From Candidatus Methanomethylophilaceae archaeon (GTDB lineage: Archaea > Thermoplasmatota > Thermoplasmata > Methanomassiliicoccales > Methanomethylophilaceae): 64,000 nt of DNA. A program made the translations under genes and the position numbers. The stretch is from the NCBI GenBank assembly GCA_944320495.1, contig CALUHR010000013.1, forward strand, positions 224,001 through 288,000, given 5' to 3'. The notes beneath the pieces were generated by a model, which was not told the origin of the DNA, did not search any database, and saw only the letters and a list, made by a program, of their open reading frames with translations. The first letter of the stretch is position 1. Each line of letters starts with the position of its first letter. Of the stretch, positions 3,620 through 59,300 are shown one piece after another.

Positions 3620-4400
3620 GACGGACCGGCAGGAAGACGAGGACCTTCGTGTCCTCCCTGTCGTCCCTTTTGACGATATCCGGGATTATCCCGGTGTTGC
3701 TCACCACCGTATGGAATATCTGCTCGAGCTGGGCGGTGCCGAAGCCCGAGCTCACGGTGACGATGAGCTTGCCGTAGGCCGGATCGGTGGGGAAGACCGT
3801 CGCGCCCATCGCGCGCTGGACCGCCTCCGCCGGATCGATGTCGTTGACGTAGGAGAAGGTGTAGGCAGGCTCCGGGAATGTGCTGAAGAACGGCCCGTCC
3901 ACAATCGCCGCCAGATTGTCCATGGACAGGGATATCGTGTGTCCTATGACGCGGAGGCCCGAATCGATCTTCACACCGCCGTTGATCTTCTCGAACATCC
4001 CCATGTCCATCAGGAAGATGCGATCGGCGGTGCCACGTATCGAATCCAAGGTCCCGATCGCCTTTCCACGGCGTTCCTTCTCGATCGGATGAGGAAGTCC
4101 GGCGACGGCAATGACCCTGCAACCGGACCGCCTGGCACATTCAGCCACATGAAGCAGCATCGCCGATCCCGACTCGCCTCCGAGCATCGCATAGACGAAC
4201 GCGACCCTGACGCCCGAGAGGGCGTTCCTTATGGCGTACTCCTCGCCGCGAGACATCGGCGTGCGGAAGTCCGGATTGCCGGCGGCGGCCTCGCGGGGAT
4301 TTATGCGGTACGTCGGTATGCGATCGAACCCCGTGCTCGCGATGATGCGGCATGCGGCACCCCCGCACGCGAAGAGGACCGCATCGTCCAAGTCTCTCAC
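3591..4400 (-). CDS. Degenerate FtsZ/tubulin-like protein
   Basis: FtsZ-like segment order: ACGGAAC (T1-like), MLGGESGS (in place of GGGTGSG), VAGLPHPIEKERRGKA...ADRIFLMD. Lies directly downstream of a CdrS-like RHH gene. Confidence 0.65.
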   Translation of the reverse strand: MRDLDDAVLFACGGAACRIIASTGFDRIPTYRINPREAAAGNPDFRTPMSRGEEYAIRNALSGVRVAFVYAMLGGESGSAMLLHVAECARRSGCRVIAVAGLPHPIEKERRGKAIGTLDSIRGTADRIFLMDMGMFEKINGGVKIDSGLRVIGHTISLSMDNLAAIVDGPFFSTFPEPAYTFSYVNDIDPAEAVQRAMGATVFPTDPAYGKLIVTVSSGFGTAQLEQIFHTVVSNTGIIPDIVKRDDREDTKVLVFLPVRLTSPRASRS

Positions 4401-4674
4401 CGACGCCCATCCTCTGGCTCAGGTACCTGTCGGCGGCGGCGCGGACCATGTCGTCCAGACTCCTGCCGTCCGGTGTCAGGTCGGAGATGTCGAGGACCTC
4501 CTGGACGTCGTACTCCGGGACCACGCCCTCGGTGATGCGCCCGTCGGCGTAGGAATCGAGGACCGAGCGTACCGCATCGTTGATGGAGCGGAACTCCCCG
4601 CGGGAGACGAGCGCCCTGTAGACGGCGACGGTGTCGGGGGAAAGCCTCAGAACGATCCTCTCGTCATCAGACAT
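4384..4674 (-). CDS. Ribbon-helix-helix protein, CdrS/CopG-like (ends at CGA 4386-4384)
   Basis: ERIVLRLS...LVSRGEFRSINDAVRSVL resembles archaeal CdrS, with a second RHH-like segment (SLDDMVRAAADRYL). The standard-code ORF runs to 4141, 260 nt into the ftsZ-like gene. Confidence 0.75.
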
Positions 4675-4738
4675 CGCGGCGCCTCGTTGAAGAAATGAAG
4701 GTAAAGGGTTTGAGGTGGGGTCCGGAATCGAACCCCGA

Positions 4739-5053
4739 TCATCCGAAGAGAGCGGAGAGACCGGCGGCGGCCTCTTCCTCGCTGACAGCCTCTTCCTCGG
4801 GCTCGGCCTCTTTGGCGGGAGCCTCGGCGGCCGCGGCGGCGGCAGCGGGGGCGGCGGCAGCGGCGGCAGGCGCAGCGACGGCTGCGCTGGCGATGGCCTC
4901 CTTGATGTCGACTCCGTCCAGAGACGCGACGAGCGCCTTGATCTTGGCTGCGTCAGGCTCGACTCCGGCGGCGGTCAGGATGGCCTGGATGGCATCCTCG
5001 GTGATGTCCTTGCCGGCAGAGTAGAGCACCATAGCGCTGTAGATATACTCCAT
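4739..5053 (-). CDS. rpl12: 50S ribosomal protein L12 (aP1)
   Basis: [12 protein letters not shown]-terminus, Ala-rich hinge, [13 protein letters not shown] tail. Confidence 0.97.
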
Positions 5054-5077
5054 ATCAAATCAACTCCTATTGATTGT

Positions 5078-8379: not shown

Positions 8380-8595
8380 TTGGGCAGGATCGCCGAAGCT
8401 GGATGGGAGATCACCGGGCCCATGCGCAATCTCTACGGGACCGATGCGAACGCCCCGTCGTACCTCGTGGCCAAGGACCACTGCGGACCCTCGTGCATCT
8501 CCTCCGAGTACGCCCTGATGAGACGCAAAGGTCTTCAGGACCCCTCTGGACATGAGGGCCCTCGATATCCTGGATCCGGAGAGCGCCGAGGGTGA
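8380..8595 (+). pseudogene. Possible decayed GyrI-like/effector-binding domain fragment
   Basis: GWEITGPMRNLY resembles the g.ei.gp.re.Y motif of GyrI-like domains. No convincing start or full domain. Confidence 0.25.
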
Positions 8596-14717: not shown

Positions 14718-15665
14718 TCACTCCCACTCGATGGTCGCGGGAGGCTTGTTCGTGATGTCGTAGACGACACGGTTGACGGAATCCTTCATCGTGTTCGTGA
14801 TGCGGACCGAGATGGCGTCGAGCACGTCCAGCGGGATGCGGGCATAGGTGGCGGTCATGCCGTCGACGGAGGCGACGGCGCGGACGGCGATGGTCCTTCC
14901 GTACGCCCTCCTGTCGCCCTGCACGCCGACGGACCTGGACGGGAGGAGGACAGCGAAGTACTGCCACGGCATCTCCATCTTGCCGGCCTCGGCGGCCTTG
15001 CGGATCTCGTCCTCGACGATGTGGCAGGCCTCGCGGACGATCGCGATGCCCTCGGGTGTGACCTCACCGAGGCACCTGACTGCCAGTGCGGGGCCGGGGA
15101 AGGGCTGCCTCTCGGACGCCTTGACGCCGAGCAGTCTGGCAACATCCCTGACCTCGTCCTTGTAGAGGTCCCTGAGGGGCTCGACCAGCGTCATGCCCAT
15201 GTCCTTGGGGAGCCCGCCGACGTTGTGGTGGGACTTGATGGTGTCCCTGACACCGTCGCCGCTCTCGATCCAGTCGGGGGCGATGGTCCCCTGGACGAGG
15301 TACTCCGCGCCGAAGTCCCTGGCCTCCCTCTCGAAGACCCTGATGAACTTCTCGCCGATGATCTTCCTCTTCCTCTCGGGGTCGGAGACGCCCTTCAGGG
15401 CGTCGAAGAACTCCTGGCCGGAGGAGGCGATCCTGTAGTTGATGCCCATGTCCCTGAGCATCCCCTCGACCTCCTCGGTCTCCCCCTTCCTCATGAGGCC
15501 GTTGTCCACGTAGACGGCGAGCAGCCTGTCGCCGATGGCCTTGCTGGCCAGAGTGGCGGCGACCATGCTGTCGACGCCGCCGGAGCAGGCGATGATGGCC
15601 CTGCCCTGTATCCTGGACCTGAGGTCCTCGACGGTCTCCTCGATGAAGTCCTCGGCACCCAGCAT
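14718..15665 (-). CDS. guaAB: GMP synthase subunit B (archaeal type)
   Basis: [32 protein letters not shown] and KPPATIEWE motifs. Confidence 0.95.
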
Positions 15666-16131
15666 CCTGAACCACCTTCTCGGAATCGGCGACGACCTTG
15701 TCCGCCTGCTCCCTCCTGTACGCGACCAGCGCGTCCCTGACGGCCGCGTCGTTCACGGCGATGATCTCGCAGGCGAGGATCGCCGCGTTGTCGCCGCGGT
15801 CGAGGCCGACACAGGCGACCGGGATGCCCGGGGGCATCTGGACGATCGAGAGGATCGCGTCCAGGTTCATGGCCCCGCTGACGGGGACGCCGATGACGGG
15901 CTTGACTGTGAACGATGCTACGACTCCGGGGAGGGCCGCCGAGAGGCCCGCGATGGCGACGAAGGCGTCGGCGTCGCTGCCCTTGACGAGCTCCTCTACC
16001 CTGGCGGGGGTCCTGTGGGCGGATGCAACCGCGATGTCGAAGGCGACGCCCAGCTTCTTCAGGACGTTGATCGCCTTCTCCGCCACGGGCATGTCGCTCT
16101 TGCTACCCAGGATGATGGAGACCTTTGACAT
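15652..16131 (-). CDS. purE: N5-CAIR mutase / AIR carboxylase (ends at CGA 15654-15652)
   Basis: [20 protein letters not shown] and QMPPGIPVA motifs; about 160 codons up to the CGA. The standard-code ORF (to 15064) overlaps guaAB by about 600 nt. Confidence 0.93.
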
Positions 16132-16236
16132 TGTGTCTGCCATCCCCTCATCGATTAAAATCTATTGTAAAGACGGAAAAGCGAACGGGTGCAGAAGGGT
16201 GAAGGATGTTTTGGTAAGGGGTTTCTCCGAGTCCGA

Positions 16237-16545
16237 TCAGCTCTTGAGAACGACGACCAGGAAGATGCCGACGGCGATGAGGGCTCCGATCAGGATTCCG
16301 ATGAGGTCGATGATCGCGGTGTAGATGAGATCGAACGCATCGACTTCGTCGAAGACGGAGATGCTGCCATCAGCAAGCAGGTAGGCCCAGATGATTCCGA
16401 TGACGAGACCGAGGACGGCCATGCACGCGCCTGCGGACCTGCTCTTACCAGATCCGAAGTACGCGGAGAAGATACCCGCCACCAGCATGACCAAGGCGAA
16501 TGCGAAAACCACCAGGGTCAGGAAGGCCATAAGGGTGAATTCCAT
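16237..16545 (-). CDS. Small membrane protein (3 TM)
   Basis: Three hydrophobic helices around YFGSGKSR; GGAGG SD and a TATA-like sequence upstream. Confidence 0.8.
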   Translation of the reverse strand: MEFTLMAFLTLVVFAFALVMLVAGIFSAYFGSGKSRSAGACMAVLGLVIGIIWAYLLADGSISVFDEVDAFDLIYTAIIDLIGILIGALIAVGIFLVVVLKS

Positions 16546-16844
16546 GTCTTAAACCTCCGATTTGGCCCGCAGAGCGGGCTCCGTTAGGTGCGCAACACAA
16601 TCGTTATTATAAAAATAATTGGACAGGGGAACAGTCTGGCTCCCTGATGCACCATCCGGTCCATTCGGATATTACGTACGTATCCTGGATATACTGTGGC
16701 TGACCCATCCAAGAATCACAACAGTTAAAGTCGCAACGATCGACTTTTCGCTCAAAGTATAATAAATAAAGCCAAAGTTTTAAATAAAATACCAATATTC
16801 CTCTTATAACATTGTTGTCGTTCGAACTGGACTGCGTGATTCCG

Positions 16845-17105
16845 ATGGATATTCTGGGTGTTGTCGAGGAAACGACCTGCGATGGCAGGATCATCATCCG
16901 CTGCGACGCCCTGCCAGACATCGGAGACTCGGTGTTCGCCAAGGGTGGGAGGCTGGGCACCGTCGGCAGGGTGTTCGGACCGGTCGACAGCCCATACGCA
17001 TCCGTGAACCCCGTCGGGGGCGCCACGGCCGCGAAGGGCACAAGGACGTCTTTCAAGGGGAGAAAGCACGATGCCAAAAGTAAGAGAGGAAACAGAAGAG
17101 ATCGA
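16845..17105 (+). CDS. gar1: H/ACA RNP subunit Gar1/Naf1 (ends at CGA 17103-17105)
   Basis: [18 protein letters not shown] motif and the conserved position upstream of tfb. The standard-code ORF ends at 17144. Confidence 0.85.
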
Positions 17106-18003
17106 AGTCTGTCCCGAGTGCGGAAGCCACCACCTCATCCGTGATTACGAGCGCGGAGAGCTGCTGTGCGAGGACTGCGGACTGGTCCTCGACGACCAGT
17201 TCATCGATCAGGGACCCGAGTGGAGGGCCTTCGATGTCGAGCAGGGCGAAAAGCGCGCACGCACCGGAGCCCCGATGACGTACACCATCCACGACAAGGG
17301 TCTGTCCACCGAGATCTCCTGGAAGAACAAGGACAGCTACGGCAAGAGCATCCCCACCAGGAACAGGGCCCAGCTGTACAGGCTGAGGAAGTGGCAGAGG
17401 AGGATCCGTGTCTCCAACGCCACCGAGAGGAACCTCGCGTTCGCCCTGTCCGAGCTGGACAGGATGGCATCCGCCATGGGACTCCCCAGGAACGTCAGGG
17501 AGACGGCCGCCATGATCTACAGGAAGGCCGTCAACAAGAACCTGATCAGAGGAAGGTCCATCGAAGGCGTCGTGGCCGCGTCGCTCTACGCCGCCTGCAG
17601 GCAGTGCGGTGTCCCGAGGACGCTCGACGAGGTCGCCAACTCCAGCCGTGTCGGCAGGAAGGAGATCGGCAGGACCTACAGGTTCATGACCCGCGAGCTG
17701 AAGCTCAAGCTGATGCCCACCAAGCCCCAGGACTACGTCCAGAGGTTCTGCTCCGAGCTCAAGCTGAGCGGGGAGGTCCAGAGCAAGGCCGCCGAGATCC
17801 TCAAGGACGCCTCCGAGAAGGAGCTCACCTCCGGCAGGGGACCCACCGGCGTCGCCGCCGCGGCCATCTACATCTCCTCCATCCTGTGCAACGAGCGCAG
17901 GACCCAGAGGGAGGTGGCCGACGTCGCGGGAGTGACCGAGGTCACCATCAGGAACCGCTACAAGGAGCTCACCGAGAAGCTGGGCATCGAGATCCAGCTC
18001 TGA
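17071..18003 (+). CDS. tfb: Transcription initiation factor IIB
   Basis: CPECG zinc ribbon, [10 protein letters not shown] and two cyclin repeats. Confidence 0.98.
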
Positions 18004-18083
18004 GCGCCAGAGGCGCAAACACTCACGCCTGTCCGTCGCCCCCAGACGGACAGGTTTAATTTTGGTATGCCTTAACATCCTGC

Positions 18084-18422
18084 ATGGAACAGCAGGACCA
18101 GAGACCCAGCAGACATGTCTGCCTCACACGCAGGGCGCCGCTCGGCATATCGTCGGACCCGGAGCTGGACATGCTCCAGGCCCTGGCCGACCCGGACGTG
18201 CTGACGATGGTACGCGGGCTGGCGAGAGAGGAGGCCAGGTCCCCGTTCCCCGACGGACTGTTCGGACTGGACTCGCCGAGGACCAACGCCGCGATCAGGA
18301 GGATGAGGGATGCGGGACTGATCTCCTCGCGCAGGGACGGCAACGATCACGTCTACTTCCTCAACGCCCCCAGGTTCCGCGACTTGGAGCACTTCATATC
18401 GGGACTGATCGCGAAGGACCGA
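18084..18422 (+). CDS. ArsR/winged-HTH family regulator (ends at CGA 18420-18422)
   Basis: LQALADPDVLTMV...AIRRMRDAGLISSRRDGNDHVYFLN. The standard-code ORF continues about 1.1 kb antisense to endA, to 19535. Confidence 0.75.
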
Positions 18423-19478
18423 TCACGGCTTGAACCAGCGGAACTCGAGGTACTCGACCCTGTTCCTCCTGACCAAACCGAAGAGGATCTCCTTCTTCAC
18501 GCCGCCCGAGAGACGCACGGTCCTGGATATCTCCGGCCACATCCTGAGGCCGTCCTCCGTCACGGCGTGCACCAGGTAGCGCGCATGGGAGTCGTCGGGG
18601 GACGTCTGGTACACCCTGAAGTGAGTGCCGTACTTGAACCCGGTCTTGACCACGAGGCCCCTCTCACGGAGGTCGGAGTAGACCAGGTACCTGATCCTGA
18701 ACTCGTCCTGGATCCTCTCGCCGAACTCCATGAGGTCGTCGAAGGTCACAGGATTGTCGTCCTGGTCCAGGACGGTGAGCCTGCCCTTTCCCATGAGGTG
18801 TACGCTCTCGATCAGCGACAGTTGCAGGGCCTCGCTCATCGACTTGCCGTAGTAGCCGTAGTCCCTGAGGGCCTCCGAATGCCCGCGGTCGAACACGAAC
18901 ACCCTGTCCCTGACCAGACGTCCGACAGGCTTGGCGGACATGGGTTCGGGATACACCCTCCCGGACGGGTCGCGGAGATCAAGGGTGTAGTAGGTCAGGT
19001 CGCCCTCCTCGTCCACGACGCCGTAGAGCAGCTTCTTCCTCCTCTCGGAGACGTCGGAGACCTGCCTGACGAGGCCGGCGATGCCGACCGCGTTCCTCTC
19101 GGACACGGCACGGACCATGAACTCCGGACGGGAGTTGCTCATCGTCTTGCCGCGGGGGAAGACGGAGATGTCGTAGTCCCCCGACTCGATCTTGACGACG
19201 AATCCGCGGTTCCTCAGGTCGCGGTAGACCATGTACTTGATGTCGAAGCCCTCGAACTCGGCCGCGGCGCGGCAGAGAAGCTCCTCGAAATGGACGGGCT
19301 CGCCCTCGGGGGTGACCACCTCGAGCCTGCGGCACTCGGTGAGGTAGACGGCCTCCACGAGGTCAAGGTCGACCCCTCCGCCACTGCGGGGGTACCCGAA
19401 ATTACCCCTGGTGTAGAGCCTGCTGCCCTCGCTCTGCTCCCTGACCTCGACACGGTCCGCAAGAAGAATGCCCGCCAT
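18423..19478 (-). CDS. endA: tRNA-splicing endonuclease (homodimeric, duplicated-domain type)
   Basis: Two repeated units; YSDLRERGLVVKTGFKYGTHFRVY...HARYLV...GVKK in the C-terminal unit. ATG 19478 (ORF track starts at 19790). Confidence 0.95.
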   Translation of the reverse strand: MAGILLADRVEVREQSEGSRLYTRGNFGYPRSGGGVDLDLVEAVYLTECRRLEVVTPEGEPVHFEELLCRAAAEFEGFDIKYMVYRDLRNRGFVVKIESGDYDISVFPRGKTMSNSRPEFMVRAVSERNAVGIAGLVRQVSDVSERRKKLLYGVVDEEGDLTYYTLDLRDPSGRVYPEPMSAKPVGRLVRDRVFVFDRGHSEALRDYGYYGKSMSEALQLSLIESVHLMGKGRLTVLDQDDNPVTFDDLMEFGERIQDEFRIRYLVYSDLRERGLVVKTGFKYGTHFRVYQTSPDDSHARYLVHAVTEDGLRMWPEISRTVRLSGGVKKEILFGLVRRNRVEYLEFRWFKP

Positions 19479-19601
19479 CGGCGGGTCCACGCCATCGCCG
19501 TATATAAGGGAAAAGGGGTCTGGGATGGAATTTAAATTACACAATGTAATTAAATAAGCCCGTGACCATGTCCCTGCGTCCGCAAGGACGGATGATGTCA
19601 T

Positions 19602-20342
19602 ATGGTGAAGCAGACCGCTGGAAGGGATTCGCTCGGGGATTTCGCACCGAAGTTCGCCGAGCTGAACGACGATGTGCTGTTCGGGGAGGTGTGGTCCAGG
19701 GAGAACGGGCTGTCGCTGCGCGACAGGTCGCTGGTGACGGTCGTATCCCTGATGTCCCAGGGACTCACGGACTCGTCGTTCAGGTACCATCTGGAATCAG
19801 CGAGGAGGAACGGGATCACCAGGACGGAGATCGCCGAGATCCTCACGCATGCGGCGTTCTACGCCGGCTGGCCGAAGGCCTGGGCCGCGTTCAACATGGC
19901 CAAGGAGGTCTGGGCCGAGGAGCCGGCGGACGATGCCAGGGCAAGGCACCAGACAGAGATGGTCTTCCCGATCGGGGAGCTCAACGATTCGTATGCGCGG
20001 TACTTCACCGGAAGGAGCTACCTGGCGCCCGTGTCCACGTCCCAGATCGGGGTGTTCAACGTGACCTTCGAGCCGGGCTGCAGGAACAACTGGCACATAC
20101 ACCACGCGGAGACCGGCGGAGGGCAGATACTCATCTGCGTCGCGGGGAGGGGGCGCTACCAGGAATGGGGCGGCGAGATCCGCGAGCTGAATCCCGGGGA
20201 CGTCGTCAACATCCCCGCCAACGTGAAGCACTGGCACGGGGCGGCGCCGGACAGCTGGTTCTCCCATCTTGCGATAGAGGTCCCCGGAACGGGGACGTCG
20301 AACGAATGGTGCGAGCCCGTGGACGACTCGCAGTACCGCCGA
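19602..20342 (+). CDS. Carboxymuconolactone-decarboxylase-like plus cupin fusion protein
   Basis: FAPKFAELNDDVLFGEVWSR (CMD) and FEPGCRNNWHIH...HWHGA (cupin). First CGA at 20340; TGA end at 20351. Confidence 0.88.
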
Positions 20343-20470
20343 CCGCGATGAACGGGCCTCAGACGATCGCCCGTGCTGGACGAAGCTCCGTTCAGACCGC
20401 TTAAATACAGAACGACAGAAGTCGGATTGGGCCGGACGAAGGAATTCTTCCGGACCCAGGGCGTGGAATC

Positions 20471-21139
20471 ATGGATGAGATCGACATGATGGAGGCGATC
20501 AGGGAGAGACACTCCGTCAGGAGGTACACGAACAGGAGGATCGAGGATCCCGAGAGGAGCCGGCTCCAGGAGGTTGTAGAAGCCTGCAACGCGCAGGGCG
20601 GCCTCAGGTTCCAGCTGTTCACCGACTCTCCGGGCGCCTTCGACGGCATCCTCTCCGGGGGGTTCAGGAACGTCGTGAACTACGTCGCCCTCGTCAAGAA
20701 GATCTCCGAGCCCGACGAGAAGGTCGGGTACTACGGAGAGGAGGTGGCACTCCGCGCACAGCAGCTGGGTCTGAGGACCTGCTGGGTCGGGCTCTCCTAC
20801 AGCAAGAGGAGGTGCAGGGCGGAGATCGCCGACGACGAGAAGCTGGTATGCTTGCTGGCCGTCGGGTACGGAGAGAACGATGGGACGGCCCACAGGAGCA
20901 GGCCCGCGGACCAGATCGGAAGATGCGAGGGGGATGCCCCGGAATGGTTCTCAAAGGGCATCGAGGCCGTGATGCTGGCGCCCTCGGCCATGAACAGGCA
21001 GAGGTTCAGATTCGTCCTCCAGGGGGACGGGCGCGTAAGAGCGGAGACCTCTGGGGGCGCCTACTCCGAGGTGGACCGGGGCATAGCGAAGCTGCACTTC
21101 GAGATCGGCGCCGGGACCGACAACTTCGAGTGGGCCCGA
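20471..21139 (+). CDS. Nitroreductase family protein (ends at CGA 21137-21139)
   Basis: AIRERHSVRRY, LAPSAMNRQ and LHFEIGAGTDNFEWA; followed by CGA CGA and a hairpin. The standard-code ORF runs to 22555, antisense to trpB2. Confidence 0.88.
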
Positions 21140-21159
21140 CGACGGGATCGGGGTTTGAA

Positions 21160-21187
21160 GGGCCCCGCCCTGAATCGGGCGGGGCCG
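21160..21187. terminator. Hairpin between the convergent nitroreductase and trpB2 genes
   Basis: GGCCCCGCCC-TGAATC-GGGCGGGGCC perfect stem. Confidence 0.55.
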
Positions 21188-21193
21188 TCTGAT

Positions 21194-22519
21194 TCAGTCG
21201 TCGATCGACGAGGACTGCATGGTGCCCTCGAGATACTGGTCGTAGCCGTAGAGGTCGAGGAACCCGTGGCCGGAGAGGCAGAACACGATGGTCTTCTCCT
21301 CGCCGGTGGCCTTGCACTCCAGGGCCTTGTCGATGGCCGCCTTGATCGCATGGCAGGACTCTGGCGCTGCCACGATGCCCTCGGTCTTCGCGAAGAGAAC
21401 GCCGGCCTCGAACGTCTCGGTCTGGTCGTACGCCACCGCCGTCAGGAGGTTCTGGTCGTACGCGGCGGACACGAGCGGGGACATGCCGTGGTATCTGAGG
21501 CCTCCGGCGTGGATACTCTTGGGGATGAACTCGGACCCGAGGGTGTACATCATCAGAAGGGGCGTGACGCCGGCGGTGTCGCCGTAGTCGTACCTGAACT
21601 CCCCCTCGGTGAGCGAGGGCGCGGCCTTGGGCTCGACGGCGATGATCTCGGTCTCGCTCCTGCCCTTGATCTTCTCGTGCATCATGGGGAAGGTGAATCC
21701 GGCGAAGTTCGAACCGCCGCCGACACAGGCGATCATGTAGTCCGGGGTAATCTCGGCCTTCTGCATCTGCAGCATGGCCTCCTCCCCGATGACGGTCTGA
21801 TGCAGCATCACATGGTTCAGGACGCTGCCGAGGGCGTAGCACGTGCCCTCGTCCTTCATTGCGAGCTCGCAGGCCTCGGAGATTGCGATGCCCAGGGACC
21901 CTGTGGTGTCCGGATGCTCCTTGAGGATCTTCTTCCCGAACTCGGTGTACTCGGACGGGGAAGCGTAGACCTCGGCACCGTACATGTGCATCAGGGTCTT
22001 CCTGAAGGGCTTCTGGTTGTAGCTGCCCTTGACCATGAACACCGTGGTGTCTATGTCGAAGAGATTGGACACCATGGCGAGGGCTGTGCCCCACTGACCG
22101 GCGCCGGTCTCGGTGGTGAGTGTGTGGATGCCCGACTCCGCGTTGTAGTACGCCTGTGCGAGGGCTGTGTTGCCCTTGTGGCTGCCCAGGGGGCTCATGT
22201 CCTCCCTCTTGAAGTAGATCTTCGCGGGGGTCTTGAGGTACCTCTCGAGGCGGTAGGCCCTCTGGAGGGGCGACGGCCTGTTGAGGGCGACAAGGTTGTC
22301 CCTGACCTCCTCGGGAATGTCGATGTACCTCTCGGTGGAGGCCTCCTGCTGGATGATGGGCTTGCAGAAGATCGCCTCGAAGTCCTGCGGCTTGGCGGGC
22401 TCCTTCGTGACGGGATTGAGCGGGGGCTTGATCTCCGGGAGGTCCGCGGCGAGGTTGTACCAGCGCTTGGGGATCTCCTCGGGATCGAGTGTGATGCGAA
22501 CGTCCTTCGGTATTGCCAT
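21194..22519 (-). CDS. trpB2: TrpB-like PLP enzyme (tryptophan synthase beta, type 2)
   Basis: GSHKGNTA (PLP Lys), TETGAGQWG, GGGSNFAG, GGLRYHG and SGHG motifs; no trpA nearby. Confidence 0.93.
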   Translation of the reverse strand: MAIPKDVRITLDPEEIPKRWYNLAADLPEIKPPLNPVTKEPAKPQDFEAIFCKPIIQQEASTERYIDIPEEVRDNLVALNRPSPLQRAYRLERYLKTPAKIYFKREDMSPLGSHKGNTALAQAYYNAESGIHTLTTETGAGQWGTALAMVSNLFDIDTTVFMVKGSYNQKPFRKTLMHMYGAEVYASPSEYTEFGKKILKEHPDTTGSLGIAISEACELAMKDEGTCYALGSVLNHVMLHQTVIGEEAMLQMQKAEITPDYMIACVGGGSNFAGFTFPMMHEKIKGRSETEIIAVEPKAAPSLTEGEFRYDYGDTAGVTPLLMMYTLGSEFIPKSIHAGGLRYHGMSPLVSAAYDQNLLTAVAYDQTETFEAGVLFAKTEGIVAAPESCHAIKAAIDKALECKATGEEKTIVFCLSGHGFLDLYGYDQYLEGTMQSSSIDD

Positions 22520-24782: not shown

Positions 24783-24866
24783 AACACGTTCCAGGAGGGG
24801 TGGATATGCCCCTCCGCAACCCTTCTCCGTCGATACCATTACAATGGTGACCCCGATACGGCGGTC

Positions 24867-25340: not shown

Positions 25341-25391
25341 ACAGAGAGGTCCATATTTCGATGGCACGGGCAATAGACTGGGGATTCCACT

Positions 25392-26987: not shown

Positions 26988-27015
26988 GGCGACCATCCAT
27001 CCTCGGTCTGTGCGA

Positions 27016-27201: not shown

Positions 27202-27244
27202 GCGCAGTGCATGGAGCTACGCGCAAATCAATATTTTGTCGGTT

Positions 27245-29120: not shown

Positions 29121-29129
29121 AGAGGTGAG

Positions 29130-31804
<2,675 letters not shown>

Positions 31805-34016: not shown

Positions 34017-34020
34017 TACG

Positions 34021-43996: not shown

Positions 43997-44302
43997 TTAT
44001 TCATCCTCTGATTTGTATAAGTCAACTCCAATCGCTCTCTTCACCTTCTCACGGAGATCGCTCTGATCCCCTCCGACCGGCACGACGACGGGCTGGATCG
44101 AATCCATGACCCTGTGCCTGACGGCGAAAGAGAGGTTGTCCAGATCCTTCGCGTCCACTGCGAGGATACCGATGTTGGGCTGGGACATCGCCTCCAGCAT
44201 TTTTTCCTGGTAGTTGTCTTTCTCAGCAACGAAGACGCGCCTGATACCGGCGAGCCTGAAGCCGAGCACGAACTCATCGCTGCCTATTACTGCGATCTCC
44301 AT
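43997..44302 (-). CDS. atpF: A1Ao ATP synthase subunit F
   Basis: IAVIGSDEFVLGFRLAG and LREKVKRAIGVDL motifs. Confidence 0.95.
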   Translation of the reverse strand: MEIAVIGSDEFVLGFRLAGIRRVFVAEKDNYQEKMLEAMSQPNIGILAVDAKDLDNLSFAVRHRVMDSIQPVVVPVGGDQSDLREKVKRAIGVDLYKSEDE

Positions 44303-45357
44303 CGGATCACCAGCAACCCTTTGATGGTGTCTGCGTCCAGTCCGCTCTCCACTCCCCTCGAGATGGTCCTGATGTTGCTGACCTCGATCTCCTTGTGGAT
44401 CATGTAGTCGATGATGGGGACCACCGACAGGGGGTACATGTGGGAGAACTTGTTCGCGGCGGCGATCTCGTACTTCTTCATCTCGGTGACGACCTCCCTG
44501 ATGCTCACCTTGTCGGATTCCACGAGTCCCTTGATGGAGTCGTAGAATTCGAGGCGGGACAGGTCGGAGGACGCGGCGGCGATGGTCTCCGCGTTGGCGA
44601 GCTGAGTCGCGTAGCGGGTGTCGATCTGCCTTCCCCCGGGGATGATGTACTTCATCACGACCTCGCCGTGGATCCCCTCCGCCTTGAGCTTGAGGATCGT
44701 CTCGAGGTTCTTGATGTCGATCTCCGTCCTGACGTAGTCCTGGAACATCCTGGTCGGCCTGGAGGTGGGGTTGATGCTCTTGACCAGCCTCACGTAGTGG
44801 GCCTTGTCCAGGTAGTCCTCGATCTCTCCCAGGTTCCCGGTCGACTTGTAGGTCGAGATGACGTCCTGGGGGATCGTGATGTGTTCCATCTTGTCGTAGT
44901 TCGCGATTATGTCTTCCACACTGTCGAGCGAGAGCAGCTTCTCCAGAGACTCGGAGTCCAGACTTCCGGCGGGGACCAGGTCCTCCCTGATTCCCTCGGG
45001 GTCAAGTCCGTACGACTTGCCGCGCAGGATGACCTTCAGGTTCCAGATGTCCCACTTCTCGAGGTACGCCTGGACCATGCCCTTGAGCTCTCCCTGGGAG
45101 GCCTGCAGGATGCTGCTGAACACCTTCGCCATGTTGGTGTAGGTGGCGTGCTCCACGAGGTCCATCCCCTCCAGCCTGCCGGCGAGGTCGGTCATCTCCT
45201 TCTGATAACCGGACTCGCTGATGTAGCGGGAGATCTCCGGGACGCTCATGAGCAGCATCTTGTTGTAGTCCTCGTCCTTGAGGAGAAGGGCCTTCTTGGC
45301 CTTCACCCTGGACACGGCATACGCGTAGTTGCCTGCCCTTCCGCTGCGGTTGAACAT
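44302..45357 (-). CDS. atpC: A1Ao ATP synthase subunit C (ends at CGA 44304-44302, overlapping the atpF ATG)
   Basis: YAYAVSRVKAKK, WDIWNLKVILR and EVSNIR...LLVI. The standard-code ORF ends at 44287. Confidence 0.93.
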
Positions 45358-46201: not shown

Positions 46202-48274
46202 TTACGCGTTGGTTGAAACTGTTTTCTTGCGTTTGATTGCGAGAGGCTCAAACTCGATTCCTCCGCCGTCGAAGAACTTGGCCATGAACTCCACGTACTG
46301 CAACCTGAGACCGTGCAGACCGGCGGAGATGATAGCCAGAGTCCAGATCATAAGATGGCCGAAGGCGATCATGATCAGGCAGAACACCAGACCGACGATG
46401 CTTCCCTCGAATGATCCAGTTCCCGCGGTCGCGTCCCAGACATAGCCTCCGAACATGTCGATGGCGATGTAGTTGAACGCGAGCGCCATACCCGCCTTGG
46501 ACATACCGATGGCAGCCAGACGAGCGTATGAAAGGACGTTTCCGATGATTCCGGGCAGCTCCAGGATAGCCTGCGCACCCTCGTGGCGGTTCAGGACCGT
46601 TCCGACGATGATCAGGACGATACCGAGGATGATGCACACCAGGTCAACGGTCATCAGGCCCGACTCGAGCCAGAAGATAAGGTAGTTGGCGAGTCCGTAG
46701 CACATGAAGACGATTCCGAGGAAGGCGAGCAGCCAGCCGCCCTTCTCCATGAACGCGTGCTTGAATCCGTGCTGGATCGTCTTGTTGTAGATGGCGCATA
46801 TGTACCCCAGTGCGAGGTGCACGACACCGATGTAGACGGTCAGCTTCATCAGGAAGCCGATCCACTCGGCACCGATCTTGCTGACTCCGTGGCCCTCGGG
46901 CAGGAACGAGAAGAAGCCGGCGATGGCCTCGTGGTTGAGACCCAGCAGCTGCTCCCATGTATGGGTGACTCCATCAGTCGGGATGCCGACGAAGTGCATT
47001 CCGAGGCATTCTCCGAAGAAGAAGAATCCGAAGATGAATGCCCATATTCCTCCGAAGAAGAACACGGTGGCGATTGCGCGCCAGTCTTTGTGGTGCGTGA
47101 CCTTGAGGCCGTACGCTCCAAGGATTATGAACGGGATTGCATATCCCACGTCTCCGACCATGAACCCGAAGAACAGGGGGAAGAAGATGGCGATCAGGAT
47201 GGAAGGGTCAATCTCCTGATACTTGGGCACCGACACCAGCTTGGTGGGGTACTCGAACTCCTTCGCGACCACTCCGTTGTTCATCTTGGTCGGCGGTTCC
47301 CTGAACCTCTTCTCGATGTCGTCCACTCCGTCGAGGGACCTGCCGCGGGTCTCCTGGACCTCCACGTAGACGCTCTCGACCTTGGTCTCGAGCTCGTTCT
47401 TGACGAACCCGGCCTTGGACTCGGGCACCCACGCGTCGATCACGAAGGTGTACTCGCTGTTGGCAATCCTGAGGGGAAGCTCCCCTTTCTCGACCTCGAT
47501 GGACAACTCCTCATCGGAGGCTTCGAGGAAATCCGTATACTTCACCATGAGGCTCTCGATATGTTTTCCGATGCTGTCGAGCTCGCTCGTCGCAGCCTCT
47601 TCCTCGCGCGCAATCGCCGTGAGGGCGGCGGACGGGGATCCGGTGATGCCCTCGGGGACGACGATCTCGGAGAAGCCGTGCTCGGCCAGAATGCTCTGGA
47701 CCTTGTCACGGACCTCGTTCCTGGCGAAGACCGCTATGACATTGCCCTCCTTCTTGTCGAAGGAGGAGAAGACCTCCACATCCGCGTTGACGAGGTCTGT
47801 GGAGGGGTCGTCTGCGACGGTGCCGACCATGGAGAATATGCTCCTGTAACCGGAGTACATCTCGAGGTCGATCGGCAGCCTGGAAAGGATTTCGAGATTC
47901 CTCTTGGTAGCGCTTAGCTCGGTGATTCTCTGATTGAGATCATTCCGCCTGTCGAAGACGGCATTAACCTCCGCCTCGACAGTCTCGACGCTGTCAGATG
48001 AAATCTGGCTCTTGATCTCGGCCTCGGGTATGGGGTTGGACTTCACCTTGGGGGTGATGCCGAGTCCCTTCTCCATCGCACGCACCTTCAGCAGCCTCTC
48101 GGATGCCTTAGGCGAGTACGGACGGGAAGTCCCGAGACTGAAACCTTCATCCGCGCCGACGGTATGATCGATCAGGTGGATGGATCCTACATCGTAGATG
48201 ACCTGGATGGCATCGTCGATGTGGGATTTGGCACCCACAATCACAATCCTACTCATCGACTCAGGAAGTGACAT
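46202..48274 (-). CDS. atpI: A1Ao ATP synthase subunit I (a)
   Basis: FFGFMVGDVGY, NVLSYARLAA and HGLRLQYVEF motifs. Confidence 0.96.
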   Translation of the reverse strand: MSLPESMSRIVIVGAKSHIDDAIQVIYDVGSIHLIDHTVGADEGFSLGTSRPYSPKASERLLKVRAMEKGLGITPKVKSNPIPEAEIKSQISSDSVETVEAEVNAVFDRRNDLNQRITELSATKRNLEILSRLPIDLEMYSGYRSIFSMVGTVADDPSTDLVNADVEVFSSFDKKEGNVIAVFARNEVRDKVQSILAEHGFSEIVVPEGITGSPSAALTAIAREEEAATSELDSIGKHIESLMVKYTDFLEASDEELSIEVEKGELPLRIANSEYTFVIDAWVPESKAGFVKNELETKVESVYVEVQETRGRSLDGVDDIEKRFREPPTKMNNGVVAKEFEYPTKLVSVPKYQEIDPSILIAIFFPLFFGFMVGDVGYAIPFIILGAYGLKVTHHKDWRAIATVFFFGGIWAFIFGFFFFGECLGMHFVGIPTDGVTHTWEQLLGLNHEAIAGFFSFLPEGHGVSKIGAEWIGFLMKLTVYIGVVHLALGYICAIYNKTIQHGFKHAFMEKGGWLLAFLGIVFMCYGLANYLIFWLESGLMTVDLVCIILGIVLIIVGTVLNRHEGAQAILELPGIIGNVLSYARLAAIGMSKAGMALAFNYIAIDMFGGYVWDATAGTGSFEGSIVGLVFCLIMIAFGHLMIWTLAIISAGLHGLRLQYVEFMAKFFDGGGIEFEPLAIKRKKTVSTNA

Positions 48275-48593
48275 TTAGGGTCCTCTCGAATTCATTTTTG
48301 AGAAAATCTTTGACTTCCTGCATTTTCGCCTCGGAGCCCTTGGTGAAGGTCTCGGCCTCCAGCCTGCCGGTGGCAAGCATGGACTCGCGCTTGACCTTCA
48401 GGTCGGCGGTCTCCTTGGCGATCGCGGATTCGTAAGAGCTGCGCATCTGAGCCTCAGCGTCCTGAATCTTCTTCACAGAATCCCTGCGGGATTCGGCGAT
48501 GGCGGACTTCTTGTCGGCCTCGGCCTGAGCGACCTTGGCGTCGGCATCCGCCTCCGCTTTCTTAATTTCCGAAAGTATGTCGATTCGGCTCAA
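48261..48593 (-). CDS. atpH: A1Ao ATP synthase subunit H
   Basis: IL.EIKKAEADAD coiled coil; first gene of the operon. The likely TTG start puts CGA at codon 3 (see findings). Confidence 0.85.
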   Translation of the reverse strand: MSRIDILSEIKKAEADADAKVAQAEADKKSAIAESRRDSVKKIQDAEAQMRSSYESAIAKETADLKVKRESMLATGRLEAETFTKGSEAKMQEVKDFLKNEFERTLNVTS

Positions 48594-49254: not shown

Positions 49255-50112
49255 GTGAGCGGGGACAACAAGGGATTCATTCTGACGATTCTGGTCATAG
49301 TCATCGTGTTTGTCGGCGGATACGCCGCACTCGTAGTGTACACAGGATCCAGCGTCCCCTTCAGCTCCGTCGTCTCCGAGAGCATGCAGCACGACAACGA
49401 CAGGTCCCAGATCGGCGTCATAGACACCGGGGACATAGTCATCGTGCGCGACCCGGACAAGACCGACATCCACAGCTACGTGGAGAGCGTCGCCGACGGC
49501 TACGAGTCCTTCGGGAACTACGGATCCGTGATAATCTACAACCGCGTGGGACAGAACCCCGTCATCCACAGAGCGATGCTGTGGCTGGACTACAACGGGG
49601 ACGGAACGTGGTCAGCTCCCGACCTCGCGAACATCCAAGGAAGCTGGTACTATCAATACGAGACCGTGAACAGCGAGACCGGCGAGGTCACCGTCACGAG
49701 GGGCACTGACTACATGAACATACGCGGGGAGCTCCACTTCCTTGACCTGGACGGAAAGACCCCGTACATCGACCTGGATTCCCTCGCAGTCAAGAAGAGC
49801 GGATTCCTCACCATGGGCGACAACCACGAGACCAACCCGAACTTCGACCAGCAGTCCGGGATAGTCGACCATCTGATCTCCCATGAGGACATCAAATCGG
49901 TGGCGGTCATCGAGATTCCATGGATGGGATCCCTGAAGCTGCTCATCAACGGAAGCGACAATCTGGCACATGTGCCGAACAGCGTCCCGTCCCTGATAAT
50001 GGAGATAGTCCTCGTGTTCTCGGCGCTCATGCTCCTCGATTTCCTCACCGTGTTCAGATACAACAGGAAGAGACAGAGGAAGATCGAGCTGGTCGAGAAG
50101 TGGAAGGGACGA
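49255..50112 (+). CDS. Signal peptidase I (S26, archaeal Ser-His type; ends at CGA 50110-50112)
   Basis: N-terminal TM, VVSESMQH, VIHRA, TMGDN and a C-terminal TM. Lies within ORF-track frame 48706..50226. Confidence 0.85.
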
Positions 50113-51788: not shown

Positions 51789-52076
51789 ATGTCTGCACAC
51801 AGGTATGCCGCCTTGGGAATGGCAGTCGTATTGGTCGTTCTCACTCTGGTCCTGTTCTCGGACGAATCCATGCAGGAGGATCCGGACATGACCGGGATAG
51901 TGAGTGATATCAAAGAGGGAACGAACGGATATACCTTCATTCTGAACACATACGACGGAAGTGTGAGGTGCTTCTTCCGCGAGAGGCCTGCAGATCTCTC
52001 GTACTGCGGCGTCTCTGGGACCTTCTCCGACGACGGGTCCATACTCTTCGTGGAGAGATTGGTCCATTTGGATCGA
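51789..52076 (+). CDS. Small membrane-anchored protein, possibly OB-fold
   Basis: N-terminal TM followed by GIVSDIKE...GYTF...VSGTFSDDGSILFV. First CGA at 52074; TAA end at 52094. Confidence 0.6.
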
Positions 52077-54852: not shown

Positions 54853-56100
54853 GTGGATTACTCCGTTATGAAGAGCCTCCAGTCCGTCTTCGGAGAGATA
54901 GATGCCAGCATGGAAGAGATAATCCAGACAGCCGTCGAGTTGGTCGGATATCCCGCATTGGCACCGATCAACGGAGGGACTGGCGAGGGGGCCAAGGCGG
55001 ATTACATCGTCTCCAAGCTCAGGGGGTTCGACAGCGTCGAGCGTATCGAGTTCCCCGATGTTACTGATCCTTCTGTGATGAGGCCCAACATAATCGCCAG
55101 GAAGAATGGCAAGGGCAAGGGGACCTTGTGGATAGTGTCCCATATGGATGTGGTCCCCACTGGTGACCCGGAGTTGTGGGACACTCCTCCGTTCGAAGGA
55201 GTCTACAAAGACGGTCGCATCTACGGCAGGGGGACCGAGGATAACGGACAGTCCGTCGTGGCCTCGATGTTCGCCGCCAAGCCGTTCCTGGATGAGGAGT
55301 TCGATGGGATGTCGCTTGCCTTAGCCTATGTGGCGGACGAGGAGACCTCCAGCGTCCTCGGCATACAGAGCCTCCTGGAGAAGGGTCTGTTCTCGGAGGA
55401 CGATGCGATAATGGTCCCGGACTGGGGATCCCCAGGAGGAACCATGATAGGCCTGGCGGAGAAGTCCGTCCTATGGCTGAGGTTCGTGATCGAGGGGAGG
55501 ACCACCCACGGTTCCACTCCCGAGCTCGGTGTCAACGCGTACCGCGTCTCCACTCTCCTGTTGATGGACCTGATGGAATCCCTCCCGGAGAAGTTCGGCG
55601 AGAGGGATGACCGCTTCCTGAATGGCGTGTCCACGTTCGAACCGACCAAGAGGCCAGCCACTGTCGACAACGTGAACACGATACCCGGCCACGACGAGTT
55701 CTGCATGGACATCCGCCTCCTCCCTGAATACGACCCCGATGATGTGCTGCGCGAGGCCGAGGCCATCGCGAGATGCTATGCGAGGGACACGGGCGCCGAG
55801 ATCCGTGTGGAGGTCATCCAGAAGGCCGTAGCGGGAAGACCGTCGCCAGATGACAGGGAGGAGTTCACCGCCCTGGCGGAATCCGTCGAGGAGGTAATCG
55901 GAGTGAGACCGAGAGGTGTCGGGATGAGCGGCGGCACATGTGCCAACTTCTTCAGGCTCAAGGGACTGGACGCGTATGTGTGGCAGTCGGAGGGAGGGAC
56001 CCTTCATGCGCCCAACGAATACGTGACGGTGGACCATCTGCTGACCGATGCGAAGGTGTACGCCTCGCTTATCCGCAGGATGTGCGTCACTCGTCGCCGA
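54853..56100 (+). CDS. M20 (ArgE/DapE-like) metallopeptidase
   Basis: SHMDVVP, GRGTEDNG, DEE and TLHAPNE motifs. First CGA at 56098; the standard ORF ends at 56136. Confidence 0.9.
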
Positions 56101-57280: not shown

Positions 57281-57290
57281 CGCCACCGCC

Positions 57291-57728
57291 TCACTGCGCT
57301 CCGGCCTGCTGGCGCCTGGCCTCGTATTCCTGCTGGACGGTCTCGGACATCGCCGCCAGGTTCCTCTGGGCGTCGTTGAGCGCCTCGACGGACTTCTTGA
57401 GGGCCTCGTTGATCTCGGCGGCGTTGGCCTCGAGGTACTCGATGGAGTCGTCGGAGGTCTTCTGGACTGAGATGCCGGACCCGATGTTGGTGACGACGGT
57501 CCTGTTCCCGGTGACCTTCACGGGGATGTAGCACGAGGCTCCAACGGGCACCATGATCTCGTCGCCCTCCTTGGCGTCCTTGAACGCCTTGACGGACTCG
57601 AGGGCGAGGGAGACCTCGTCGAACGAGACGCGGAGGACCTGGACCTGGCGGTTCATGGCCTCGACCCTCTCCCTGTAGGCGTCCACCAGGGCGATTGCCT
57701 GACGGAGCTCGTTGTCGTTCACGTTCAC
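57291..57728 (-). CDS. pfdA: Prefoldin subunit alpha
   Basis: EIMVPVGAS and VTNIGSG motifs; conserved rpl18a-pfdA-ftsY order. Confidence 0.93.
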   Translation of the reverse strand: MNVNDNELRQAIALVDAYRERVEAMNRQVQVLRVSFDEVSLALESVKAFKDAKEGDEIMVPVGASCYIPVKVTGNRTVVTNIGSGISVQKTSDDSIEYLEANAAEINEALKKSVEALNDAQRNLAAMSETVQQEYEARRQQAGAQ

Positions 57729-57952
57729 TCACCGATCTGGTACTTGACGGTGTGGTTGACGACCTGGTCCGCGGGGATCTCGGCGACATCGGTGATGTCG
57801 ATCTGCCACCTCTTCAGCTTGTGCTTGCTGCCGATGGTGGACAGGGCCTTCTCCTTGACGGCGGCCTCGTCCTCGGCGGCCATCTCGATGGAGAAGGGCT
57901 GCCTGATCTGCCTGGGGTCTGCGTAGTTGCCAGTGACACGGAATGCTTTCAT
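57725..57952 (-). CDS. rpl18a: 50S ribosomal protein L18Ae (LX)
   Basis: FRVTG and LSTIGSKHKLKRWQI motifs. Confidence 0.92.
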   Translation of the reverse strand: MKAFRVTGNYADPRQIRQPFSIEMAAEDEAAVKEKALSTIGSKHKLKRWQIDITDVAEIPADQVVNHTVKYQIGE

Positions 57953-58070
57953 GGTGATTACCTTGCCGTGTGCAACCGCACCCCCTTAATAAAGGGTTCG
58001 CTCGCGCGTAATATAGCGGGCGCAGCGTCTTCGGAGGCCAGGATGTTGTCCGGACGAATGTGCCAGACCA

Positions 58071-59300
58071 TCGGAAAAGCCTCTGTCTGCCCGCCTCCTC
58101 CGATGCGAATCCGAAATCGGCCATCTTCCTGCCTATGAGGAACACGGCGGCGAACTCGGGGACCTCCGTCTCCCCCTCCAGGGAGAAATGCTCCCCCTTC
58201 ATGTCCAGCTTCGCGGGCCTCCTCATCGTGATCTTCACAGGGTCGTCGGAGTAAGCGTCAGGCACTGCCATCTGCAGGGGGTCGAAATCCGTGAGCTGGT
58301 CCCTGGTGATGGGGGTCACGCGGAGCCCGCTCTTGCCGTGGACGGACCCGGGGAGGCGTATCAGCCTCTTGATGTCCGCCGTGACCGGCTCGTCCACCTC
58401 GCCCGAGAGTCTCGGTGCCATGTCCTCGGCCATGATCTTCACGAGGATGTTCTGGGTGGACGTGGACAGCATGGCCATGGTGTTCCTCTCGAACAGCCTG
58501 GTCCTGGCGCCCTTCAGCTCCTCCTGGGCCTTGTAGACGGTCTTGATGTCGCTGCCCTTGATGCTGGGGTACTCGCGTTTGAGCTCCTTCCCGTCCCCGT
58601 CGCAGAAGTCGTTGACGACGTCCATGAGGCCGTGGCGCATTCTCAGCCTCCATCCTCCCGCATCCGCGGGAGGGATCAGCCTGTCCTTGGCGACGTTGGT
58701 GCGCATGCCTGACCCCGTGACGACCTTGGACGTGGCGACCCTGTTGTAAGGGAAGACCCAGTCGATGTTGAGGCCGGACCCGGTGATGTAGTCCACGAGC
58801 TCGCGCCTCTCGTGCGTCCCTAGCTCCATGACGTCCGGCGTGCGGACGTGGGCGTGGTACCCCCTTCCGCCGGAGAACGTGATGTGGACCTGCTCCTCCG
58901 AGAATCCCAGGTCCCCGAGCAGGAAGGAGTCGACGAGGTTCATCATCTCCGAGCGGATCTGCCTGAGCATCTCCGCATAGGTCATGTTCGCGGCGCCCTC
59001 CAGGTGGTCGGCGTCCAGGTCGAAGATGAGCTCCGCCCCGAGCCACTCCTTCTCGTCCATGGTGGGGGCGTCCGGCTTGCGGTAGTATGACGTGGAGTAG
59101 TAGCTGTGCGCGGGGACGTTCCCCTGCATGTACCGGCGCAGCTCTTCGGGGCTGCTGAACGATAGGTGCCTCTGGACGTAGTTCCTGTCGAAGAACATGA
59201 AGCCGAACTCCCTGCGGGCGAACCTGTCTGGCACAATGGGACCGTCCGTCCGGTAGTACTTCTTGAACGCCTTGAGCATGAAGCGGGAGTTCGGGTCCAT
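58071..59300 (-). CDS. priS: DNA primase small (catalytic) subunit (ends at CGA 58073-58071)
   Basis: RREFGF, LIFDLDADHL, FSGGRGYH and DEPVTADIKRLIRLPGSVHGK motifs. ATG 59300. The standard-code ORF runs to 57729, across rpl18a. Confidence 0.94.

Follow-up and report, generated by a model that had tools for sequence, protein, structure and literature searches.

The 64,000-nucleotide stretch of archaeal DNA analysed here (the window) corresponds to C13:224001-288000 of a 1.77-Mb genome assembly comprising 14 contigs with 61% G+C, and the subject of this analysis is the codon CGA, which stands in frame at the ends of genes in this window. The source organism is a chicken-gut methanogen, a pyrrolysine (Pyl)-using archaeon of the Methanoprimaticola type within the Methanomethylophilaceae. 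Its genome encodes McrA, and a match to the PylS profile at C9:67854-68522 scored 260.8 bits, above the cut-off; a tRNA-Pyl gene was not found in the source genome by ARAGORN. Named relatives include 'Candidatus Methanoprimaticola sp. MG2' (G013), alongside many Methanomethylophilaceae metagenome-assembled genomes from animal guts. The stretch itself was recovered in public runs from chicken-gut, bird and unlabelled metagenomes (four DNA and three RNA studies). A sequence-only reading of the window had reported that 17 of its genes end at an in-frame CGA, and had proposed CGA as a stop in a candidate new archaeal genetic code.

Genes were delimited with a finder based on codon log-odds which accepted TAA, TGA and CGA as stops, with CGA kept neutral in training. 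This model placed a terminator at all 17 proposed sites. When the same frames were read with the standard translation table (table 11), nine of the 17 ran for an additional 171-1416 nucleotides (nt) into neighbouring genes, as the sequence-only reading had also observed. Pfam profiles are complete upstream of the CGA in five of the encoded proteins, namely AtpC, PurE, PriS, a nitroreductase and an M20 peptidase. The atpC gene (44302-45357, minus strand; CGA at 44302-44304) matches its profile from position 2 to 337 of 339 before the CGA, which overlaps the start of atpF in the sequence CGATG. The purE gene (15652-16131, minus strand; CGA at 15652-15654) covers positions 1-147 of 148 of the AIRC profile, and its table-11 tail would comprise 195 amino acids (aa); the TM1586-type nitroreductase gene (20471-21139, plus strand; CGA at 21137-21139) covers 1-215 of 215, with a tail of 471 aa. 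The M20 peptidase gene (54853-56100, plus strand; CGA at 56098-56100) covers 2-205 of 206, and the Pfam domain of PriS (58071-59306, minus strand; CGA at 58071-58073) is likewise complete before the CGA. Pfam Fer4 domains precede the CGA of a QueG-like 4Fe-4S protein gene (39067-39834, plus strand; CGA at 39832-39834), and a winged helix-turn-helix regulator with a Pfam HTH_20 match (29130-29639, plus strand; CGA at 29637-29639) is followed by the next gene from 29642.

The other CGA ends belong to smaller or less well characterised genes. An RHH-type small gene (4384-4674, minus strand; CGA at 4384-4386) would gain 243 nt under table 11, a hypothetical gene (33405-34016, plus strand; CGA at 34014-34016; next gene from 34021) 1062 nt, and an ArsR-type regulator (18084-18422, plus strand; CGA at 18420-18422) 1113 nt running antisense through its neighbour. 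Eight read-through tails (70-471 aa) were searched and none contained a Pfam match; these include the tails of the three genes just named, of purE, the nitroreductase gene and priS, and of a transposase-like gene (25392-26996, minus strand; CGA at 25392-25394). Further CGA terminators were assigned to gar1 (16845-17105, plus strand; CGA at 17103-17105), a CMD/cupin gene (19602-20342, plus strand; CGA at 20340-20342), a small tautomerase-like gene (27016-27165, minus strand; CGA at 27016-27018), an isomerase-like gene (35028-35786, minus strand; CGA at 35028-35030) and a signal-peptidase-like gene (49255-50112, plus strand; CGA at 50110-50112). A small open reading frame (ORF) at 51831-52076 (plus strand; CGA at 52074-52076) is a weak call with a gene-model score of only 9.3, and the model added one CGA terminator at 8563-8565, again for a weak small ORF.

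Comparison with relatives at 80-87% identity revealed TGA exactly opposite the CGA ends. All six window ends that could be aligned to G013, G002 or G011 face TGA: gar1 (in G013 and G011), the ArsR-type regulator (G011), the isomerase-like gene (G013), the M20 peptidase gene and priS (both in G002 and G013) and atpC (all three). No TGA end of the source genome showed CGA in these three genomes. The atpC/atpF overlap reads ATC TGA TGG in five species at 81-87% identity (G013, G002, G011, G017 and G016), and ATC CGA TGG in the source genome and in G018, another assembly of this species that is 99.4% identical. Between the source genome and G018, at least nine genes differ by TGA versus CGA, in both directions, with encoded proteins 93-100% identical. 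Two of these genes lie in the window, where both the CMD/cupin gene (protein 93.5% identical) and the nitroreductase gene end in TGA in G018. Differences in both directions are what a neutral interchange of synonymous terminators predicts.

For the count of orthologue ends in other genomes, homology hits served as the training set, since codon models that had been self-trained on other genera were contaminated by antisense ORFs. By homology, CGA was the effective stop at 31 of 185 ends in G018, 20 of 55 in G010, 8 of 30 in G001, 8 of 49 in G045 and 7 of 53 in G046. Counts remained at the background level of 0-2 in G008, G044, G013, G011, G002, G043, G015 and G066. The sites at which CGA serves as terminator are largely unshared between species, and the share of genes ending in it varies between about 0 and 40% among species which have the same N-domain of archaeal release factor 1 (aRF1).

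An explanation that leaves the standard code intact would treat these CGAs either as TGA codons misread during sequencing or assembly, or as true stop-loss extensions. Every case is indeed a single T-to-C change, and a standard stop follows soon after some CGAs (at +5 in atpC and +1 in the gene ending at 39832-39834). The C was examined in Logan contigs, which were built apart from the deposited assembly and were compared with window positions 15200-35199. Contigs of DNA run X1 showed no differences across the CGA sites at 17103, 21137, 25392 and 27016, and those of RNA library X15 (study P5) none at 17103-17105 and 29637-29639. Contigs of DNA run X2, from a separate study, covered three CGA sites with a few differences, and X2 alone leaves the C at these sites unconfirmed. 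Parts of the window that lacked contig cover in some runs were left out of the evidence. Public DNA data thus bear out the C. As the same pattern recurs in assemblies from many laboratories and hosts, an assembly artefact is excluded. Errors could not, moreover, empty gene interiors of CGA, and 36% of the extensions implied by the standard code are at least 50 codons long and run through neighbouring genes, also in essential genes. We consider a standard code with erroneous or extended ends practically negligible as an explanation. A sequencing or motif-specific error was rejected in view of the TGA found opposite CGA in relatives, the agreement with G018, the matching contigs and the depletion of CGA inside genes.

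A swap of TAG and CGA, or an in-silico recoding of the sequence, was also considered, as TAG behaves like a sense codon and CGA like a stop; it was ruled out by the TGA found opposite CGA in relatives, by the presence of the feature in G018 and by the matching public contigs. The contig comparison yielded one further observation. An X2 contig joins window position 22519 to 27141, weakly, with only 22 letters on its short side and a depth of 5.5, and positions 25205-26538 have almost no depth in X2 and in RNA run X16; the transposase-like gene at 25392-26996 seems to sit in a strain-variable insertion.

Alternatively, the code could be standard and terminal CGA codons could be converted to UGA by site-specific C-to-U editing of the mRNA, as the sequence-only reading had allowed. 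CGA and TGA are one C/T transition apart and occupy the same positions in relatives, and C-to-U editing of tRNA is known from archaea. The RNA-library contigs of X15, however, carry C at the ends of both gar1 and the regulator gene at 29130-29639, which is modest evidence against wholesale editing and leaves this alternative without support. Editing would also have to spare the conserved in-frame CGAs in the aRF1 gene, at the gmhA-gmhB junction and in atpH which are described below, it would leave an altered tRNA-Arg(UCG) unaccounted for, and a guide motif is lacking beyond a bias for T at the +4 position. It appears very improbable to us.

The behaviour of CGA was the same genome-wide. Counts of in-frame CGA per decile of table-11 ORFs were 406, 173, 69, 44, 11, 11, 16, 38, 76 and 292, so that ORF middles are nearly free of CGA and both ends are enriched, whereas the distributions of other rare codons are far flatter. 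For each codon, in-frame occurrences preceded by 60 strongly coding codons were aligned, and the coding signal downstream was recorded. The mean log-odds per codon fell from +0.4 to -0.38 directly after CGA (n = 395). The drop was identical for TGA (n = 1050) and TAA (n = 54), whereas values after CGG, CGT and AGA remained positive. TAG gave a sense-like profile genome-wide, consistent with its decoding as Pyl, and is nearly unused as a terminator: only about 4 of 111 in-frame TAG codons with coding sequence upstream precede clearly non-coding sequence. In this Pyl-type archaeon, with TAG already treated as a sense codon, a stop set of TGA, CGA and TAA is strongly supported. Gene models with CGA as a stop comprised 1,667 genes and 86.9% coding sequence, compared to 1,372 genes and 78% for table 11, and assigned TGA to 1,187, CGA to 422 and TAA to 58 gene ends, which corresponds to about 25% CGA.

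The next standard stop follows CGA terminators after a median of 23.5 codons and TGA stops after 27, and lies at least 50 codons away in 36% of the CGA cases. Since both codons have the same distance to the next stop, selection for back-up stops is not apparent and read-through is unbuffered. The sequence-only reading had reported no flanking motif at CGA ends. A context bias does exist, with T at the +4 position of 54% of CGA terminators compared to 29% of TGA stops, and A at this position in 8% of the CGA cases; no further shared motif was seen. CGA terminators are mostly followed by TC or TG, the second following base is C or G in 84%, and A immediately 5' of the codon is rare, as exemplified in the window by the sites at 4384, 18420, 27016, 35028, 44302, 52074 and 58071. 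This context could reflect termination efficiency or a mutational bias. Among the genes ending in CGA is also pelota (C1:21187-22227).

Inside genes, CGA has nearly disappeared. Proteins of the source genome were searched by tblastn against 13 genomes of the genus, yielding 255,955 aligned codons, and only 7 of the 15,220 arginine codons in these conserved alignments were CGA. The share of CGA among arginine codons was 3.3-7.2% in three other families, where it mostly stands opposite arginine, and 0-2.2% in four other genera of the same family. As judged from conserved codons, these alignments demonstrate a loss of sense CGA throughout the sampled genus, also in species where it does not serve as a stop; the many conserved sense CGAs that would speak for an ordinary arginine codon were not found. 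Genome-wide, CGA with coding sequence on both sides occurs in 15 candidate cases, most of them weak. These comparisons at the level of sequence establish that CGA marks gene ends in this species and in at least part of its genus, where it and TGA replace each other freely, and that ordinary sense positions in the genus are kept free of it.

Some observations extend to the neighbouring genera. Nearly all aRF1 genes of the family (loci L316-L358 and, for G094, L394-L398) keep at least one CGA, at Arg28, Arg14, Arg126, Arg30 or Arg81, and CGA makes up only about 1% of the arginine codons in the genes flanking them. Genome G094, which we take to be Methanomethylophilus alvus, has no CGA among 644 conserved arginine codons, seven stop-like CGAs in 100 kb and a tRNA-Arg(UCG) of canonical form. 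The phenomenon may extend to other genera.

The sequence-only reading had assumed that tRNA-Arg(UCG) is absent. This was incorrect, as its gene is present at C13:413317-413390, and the tRNA was identified in at least 21 genomes of the genus. An alignment read by eye indicates that the arginine identity bases A20, C35 and G36 are retained. The anticodon stem, by contrast, is altered: the 31-39 pair of the source-genome tRNA is broken (A-A), accompanied by U32 and C38, and this mismatch is unique to tRNA-Arg(UCG) among the 45 tRNAs of the genome. Mismatches at 31-39 (A-A, C-A or U-C) were identified in 18 genomes of the genus, although other positions of the stem show compensatory changes. In a three-genome clade (G008, G015 and G005), the tRNA has instead C33 in place of the near-universal U33, together with a 27-43 mismatch. 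Four neighbouring genera have the C31-G39 pair and U33, and the tRNA is canonical also in five other families. A separate C-A mismatch, at 28-42, occurs in tRNA-Arg(UCG) of G079, a member of a neighbouring genus.

The source genome carries a single copy of the aRF1 gene (C2:85933-87174, minus strand), and the only other match to the eRF1_1 domain is Pelota. Compared to other families, aRF1 carries the substitutions R68M, Y/F56Q, S59A and T122A. These were set aside as genus-specific changes, since they hold against other families only, and R68M and Y/F56Q are common to genera which still use CGA as an arginine codon. G31S, at the first position of the GTS-equivalent loop, is shared by the source genome and G018 and by no other of the roughly 90 family members compared.

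The aRF1 gene itself contains one in-frame CGA, encoding Arg81 in the context GCT-CGA-CTC, within the conserved segment IAARLKTYK that follows the NIKS motif. CGA occupies this position in 47 of 50 genomes of the genus, and the gene contains no other CGA. Its context GCT/TCT-CGA-CT is invariant, while neighbouring synonymous sites vary. In twelve outgroups from other families, Arg81 is encoded by CGC, CGT, CGG, AGA or AGG, and CGA occurs at other positions of the gene. Real CGA or TGA terminators are followed by CT in only 1% of cases. The reading frame runs on through the codon, which stands at a conserved arginine, and no +1 frameshift is involved. In G070, aRF1 has CGC at position 81 and no CGA at all, in a genome without a detected tRNA-Arg(UCG).

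Two further in-frame CGAs are conserved. The lone internal CGA noted by the sequence-only reading, codon 3 of atpH (48585-48587, minus strand; gene 48261-48593, start TTG), is real: the gene begins TTG/ATG AGC CGA in 24 of 30 genomes of the genus, and codon 3 is a candidate site at which CGA is read as arginine. The remaining six (G040, G015, G007, G008, G031 and G005) have CGG at this codon, and three of them have the C33 tRNA. The other case lies outside the window, some 30 kb upstream, where gmhA and gmhB share one frame via CGA (C13:193618-194718, minus strand; junction at C13:194145) and the GmhB phosphatase domain lacks a separate start codon. Of 28 genomes, 23 have CGA at the junction, 2 have TAG and 3 have AGA or AAG; a few genomes have TAA there, between separate gmhA and gmhB genes. 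The CGA at this junction looks like a site of programmed read-through yielding both GmhA and a GmhA-GmhB fusion. Three conserved in-frame CGAs at arginine positions indicate that CGA is not a pure stop codon and is still read as arginine at special sites.

Other internal CGAs were less consistent. A flavodoxin-like gene (C8:55277-55840) carries a mid-domain CGA at C8:55685 (GKTI-CGA-PFCT), where the closest homologues have AGG; as a programmed site it was set aside, being a single-species case which may reflect a recent pseudogene or low-level read-through. The CGAs at C8:98215 and C1:9793 were rejected as internal, since an in-frame ATG follows a few codons downstream, indicating an ordinary CGA stop and a start in the same frame. 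At C5:178733, GTG follows three codons after the CGA, which has a CGA-CT context like that of the aRF1 site.

The following mechanism would account for these results. The single aRF1 may terminate translation at CGA by out-competing a tRNA-Arg(UCG) that is retained but weakened, through the broken 31-39 pair in most species and through C33 in one clade. CGA would then be read as arginine at codon 81 of aRF1 (T-CGA-CT), at the gmhA-CGA-gmhB junction and at codon 3 of atpH, and the residual tRNA would serve the few sites where read-through is useful. At codon 81, this predicts a feedback loop: abundant aRF1 would stop its own synthesis there, and scarce aRF1 would let the tRNA read through. From the comparative evidence we regard it as probable that CGA is the default stop, recognised by aRF1 in competition with the weakened tRNA, and is read as arginine at the three conserved sites. 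The more specific proposal is put forward tentatively, and its chances appear to us to fall slightly short of even: that the two meanings of CGA originate from a crippled tRNA rather than from an altered release factor, with arginine inserted at programmed sites including aRF1 codon 81, which would represent an RF2-like feedback in archaea.

Several points weigh against termination by aRF1 in competition with the tRNA. Its support consists of sequence statistics and comparison. Once neighbouring genera were included, no genus-specific substitution was found in the N-domain of aRF1, and the NIKS, YxCxxxF and GTS-equivalent regions do not vary within the family; the proposal gives no account of how a codon beginning with C is recognised in CGA and yet CAA and CAG stay glutamine codons. 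The gene for the cognate tRNA-Arg(UCG) has been kept, and a clean stop codon would not need one. The tRNA was not found in G070, but as this genome is only 87% complete, its absence there is weak evidence. A conserved RNA structure at the aRF1 CGA was not detected by RNAalifold (15 sequences; covariation -0.34 kcal/mol; no supported helix). G013, G002, G011, G008 and G044 have no sense CGA, yet are essentially without CGA terminators, and CGA may simply be unassigned in these genomes. Finally, the RNA contigs derive from metatranscriptome libraries with a possible DNA content and cover two sites.

Some of these points lend weight to a different explanation, namely that CGA is unassigned or poorly decoded and that ribosomes stall at CGA with an empty A site, to be released by a Pelota/ABCE1-type rescue together with peptidyl-tRNA hydrolase, or by slow near-cognate termination. 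A tRNA-Arg(UCG) defective throughout the genus, aRF1 reading motifs without genus-specific change and the many members of the genus in which CGA is avoided but does not end genes would fit this explanation well, and Pelota is present, with a gene that itself ends in CGA. Routine reliance on stalled ribosomes and their rescue would, however, seem an expensive way to finish a quarter of all proteins. In several species, 25-40% of genes end in CGA, among them atpC, priS, purE and pelota, CGA and TGA are freely swapped within species, and back-up stops are not enriched. The conserved CGA in the aRF1 gene is also explained more simply if aRF1 acts on this codon. We therefore judge an unassigned CGA to be unlikely, and favour termination by aRF1 in competition with the weakened tRNA. 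From the new code proposed by the sequence-only reading, CGA as a terminator, the stop set TGA/CGA/TAA and the exclusion of TAG from it are strongly supported by composition, orthologue ends, polymorphism within the species and public reads. The mechanism proposed with it has to be revised, as the tRNA is present and the aRF1 motifs showed no genus-specific change.

Full-text literature searches returned no description of CGA termination in Methanomassiliicoccales, and no established sense-to-stop change outside organelles was found in the literature. If true, the present case would be the first well-supported sense-to-stop code change in a cellular, non-organellar genome, and would provide a fourth stop codon in an archaeon which already reads UAG as pyrrolysine. 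It would also represent a code change caught in mid-course: sense CGA is gone from every species sampled in this large genus of gut archaea, its use as a terminator ranges from about 0 to 40%, and TGA and CGA are polymorphic within a species. The proposed mechanism connects three elements, namely the weakened tRNA, the single release factor and the CGA conserved in the gene for that factor. In practical terms, annotation with table 11 joins about a quarter of the genes to others or makes them too long, and many proteins in public databases are wrongly labelled as a result; such genomes are frequent in gut data sets from chickens, ruminants and humans. The results also bear on genetic-code engineering with translation parts from Methanomethylophilaceae.

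Sense codons that became stops are known from organelles (NCBI tables 2, 22 and 23), namely AGA and AGG in vertebrate mitochondria, UCA in Scenedesmus and UUA in Thraustochytrium mitochondria. As in these codes, a sense codon is found here at gene ends and is missing inside genes, and as in table 2 it is an arginine codon. Unlike them, the present case concerns a free-living cellular genome of about 1.8 Mb with a full tRNA set, which retains the gene for the cognate tRNA; a single transition separates the new stop from UGA, with which it is polymorphic, and a few conserved in-frame uses are evidently still read as arginine.

Arginine codons are also prominent among changes of the prokaryotic code. 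CGA, CGG and AGG are the sense codons most often found reassigned by Codetta and KACI (PMC8629427; bioRxiv 10.64898/2026.04.02.715157). Those cases are sense-to-sense changes (to Trp, Gln, Met or Ala), mostly in low-GC bacteria, whereas the source genome has 61% GC and CGG still encodes arginine. In two archaeal assemblies from hydrothermal vents, CGA is absent from hidden Markov model domains and tRNA(UCG) is lacking, and a possible stop function was raised there without test (bioRxiv 10.64898/2026.04.02.715157). The habitat differs from that of the gut archaea studied here, which retain tRNA(UCG). Methanomassiliicoccales are not named in that work ('Methanom' has 0 occurrences).

The aRF1 gene resembles that of bacterial RF2 (prfB) in that a release-factor gene carries an early conserved in-frame codon at which the factor is proposed to terminate its own synthesis, so that the full-length protein would need low factor activity. 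RF2 relies on a +1 frameshift with a Shine-Dalgarno-like stimulator, whereas the aRF1 frame is continuous and would be read by a tRNA, without a stimulatory structure having been found, and the feedback is putative. The altered tRNA has its own parallel in tRNA-Trp of Blastocrithidia and Condylostoma, where a shortened anticodon stem of 4 bp changes decoding. Such tRNAs with short anticodon stems have been surveyed in bacteria as well (PMC13092985). Both here and in the 4-bp-stem tRNAs, a change in the number of anticodon-stem pairs goes along with a new meaning of a codon one base from UGA. The 4-bp-stem tRNAs read a stop codon, whereas the 31-39 break adjoins the anticodon loop and is proposed to weaken reading of the tRNA's own cognate codon.

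Finally, CGA joins the codons that signify a stop or an amino acid according to their place, such as UAG for Pyl ('Genetic Code 34', bioRxiv 10.1101/2024.09.30.615893), UGA for selenocysteine and the context-dependent codes of ciliates. CGA has 0 occurrences in the Code 34 paper (bioRxiv 10.1101/2024.09.30.615893). The link to the Pyl codes is direct, as the same organisms treat UAG as a sense codon and two species have TAG at the gmhA-gmhB junction. UAG and UGA with dual meaning, however, are former stop codons, whereas CGA is a former sense codon.

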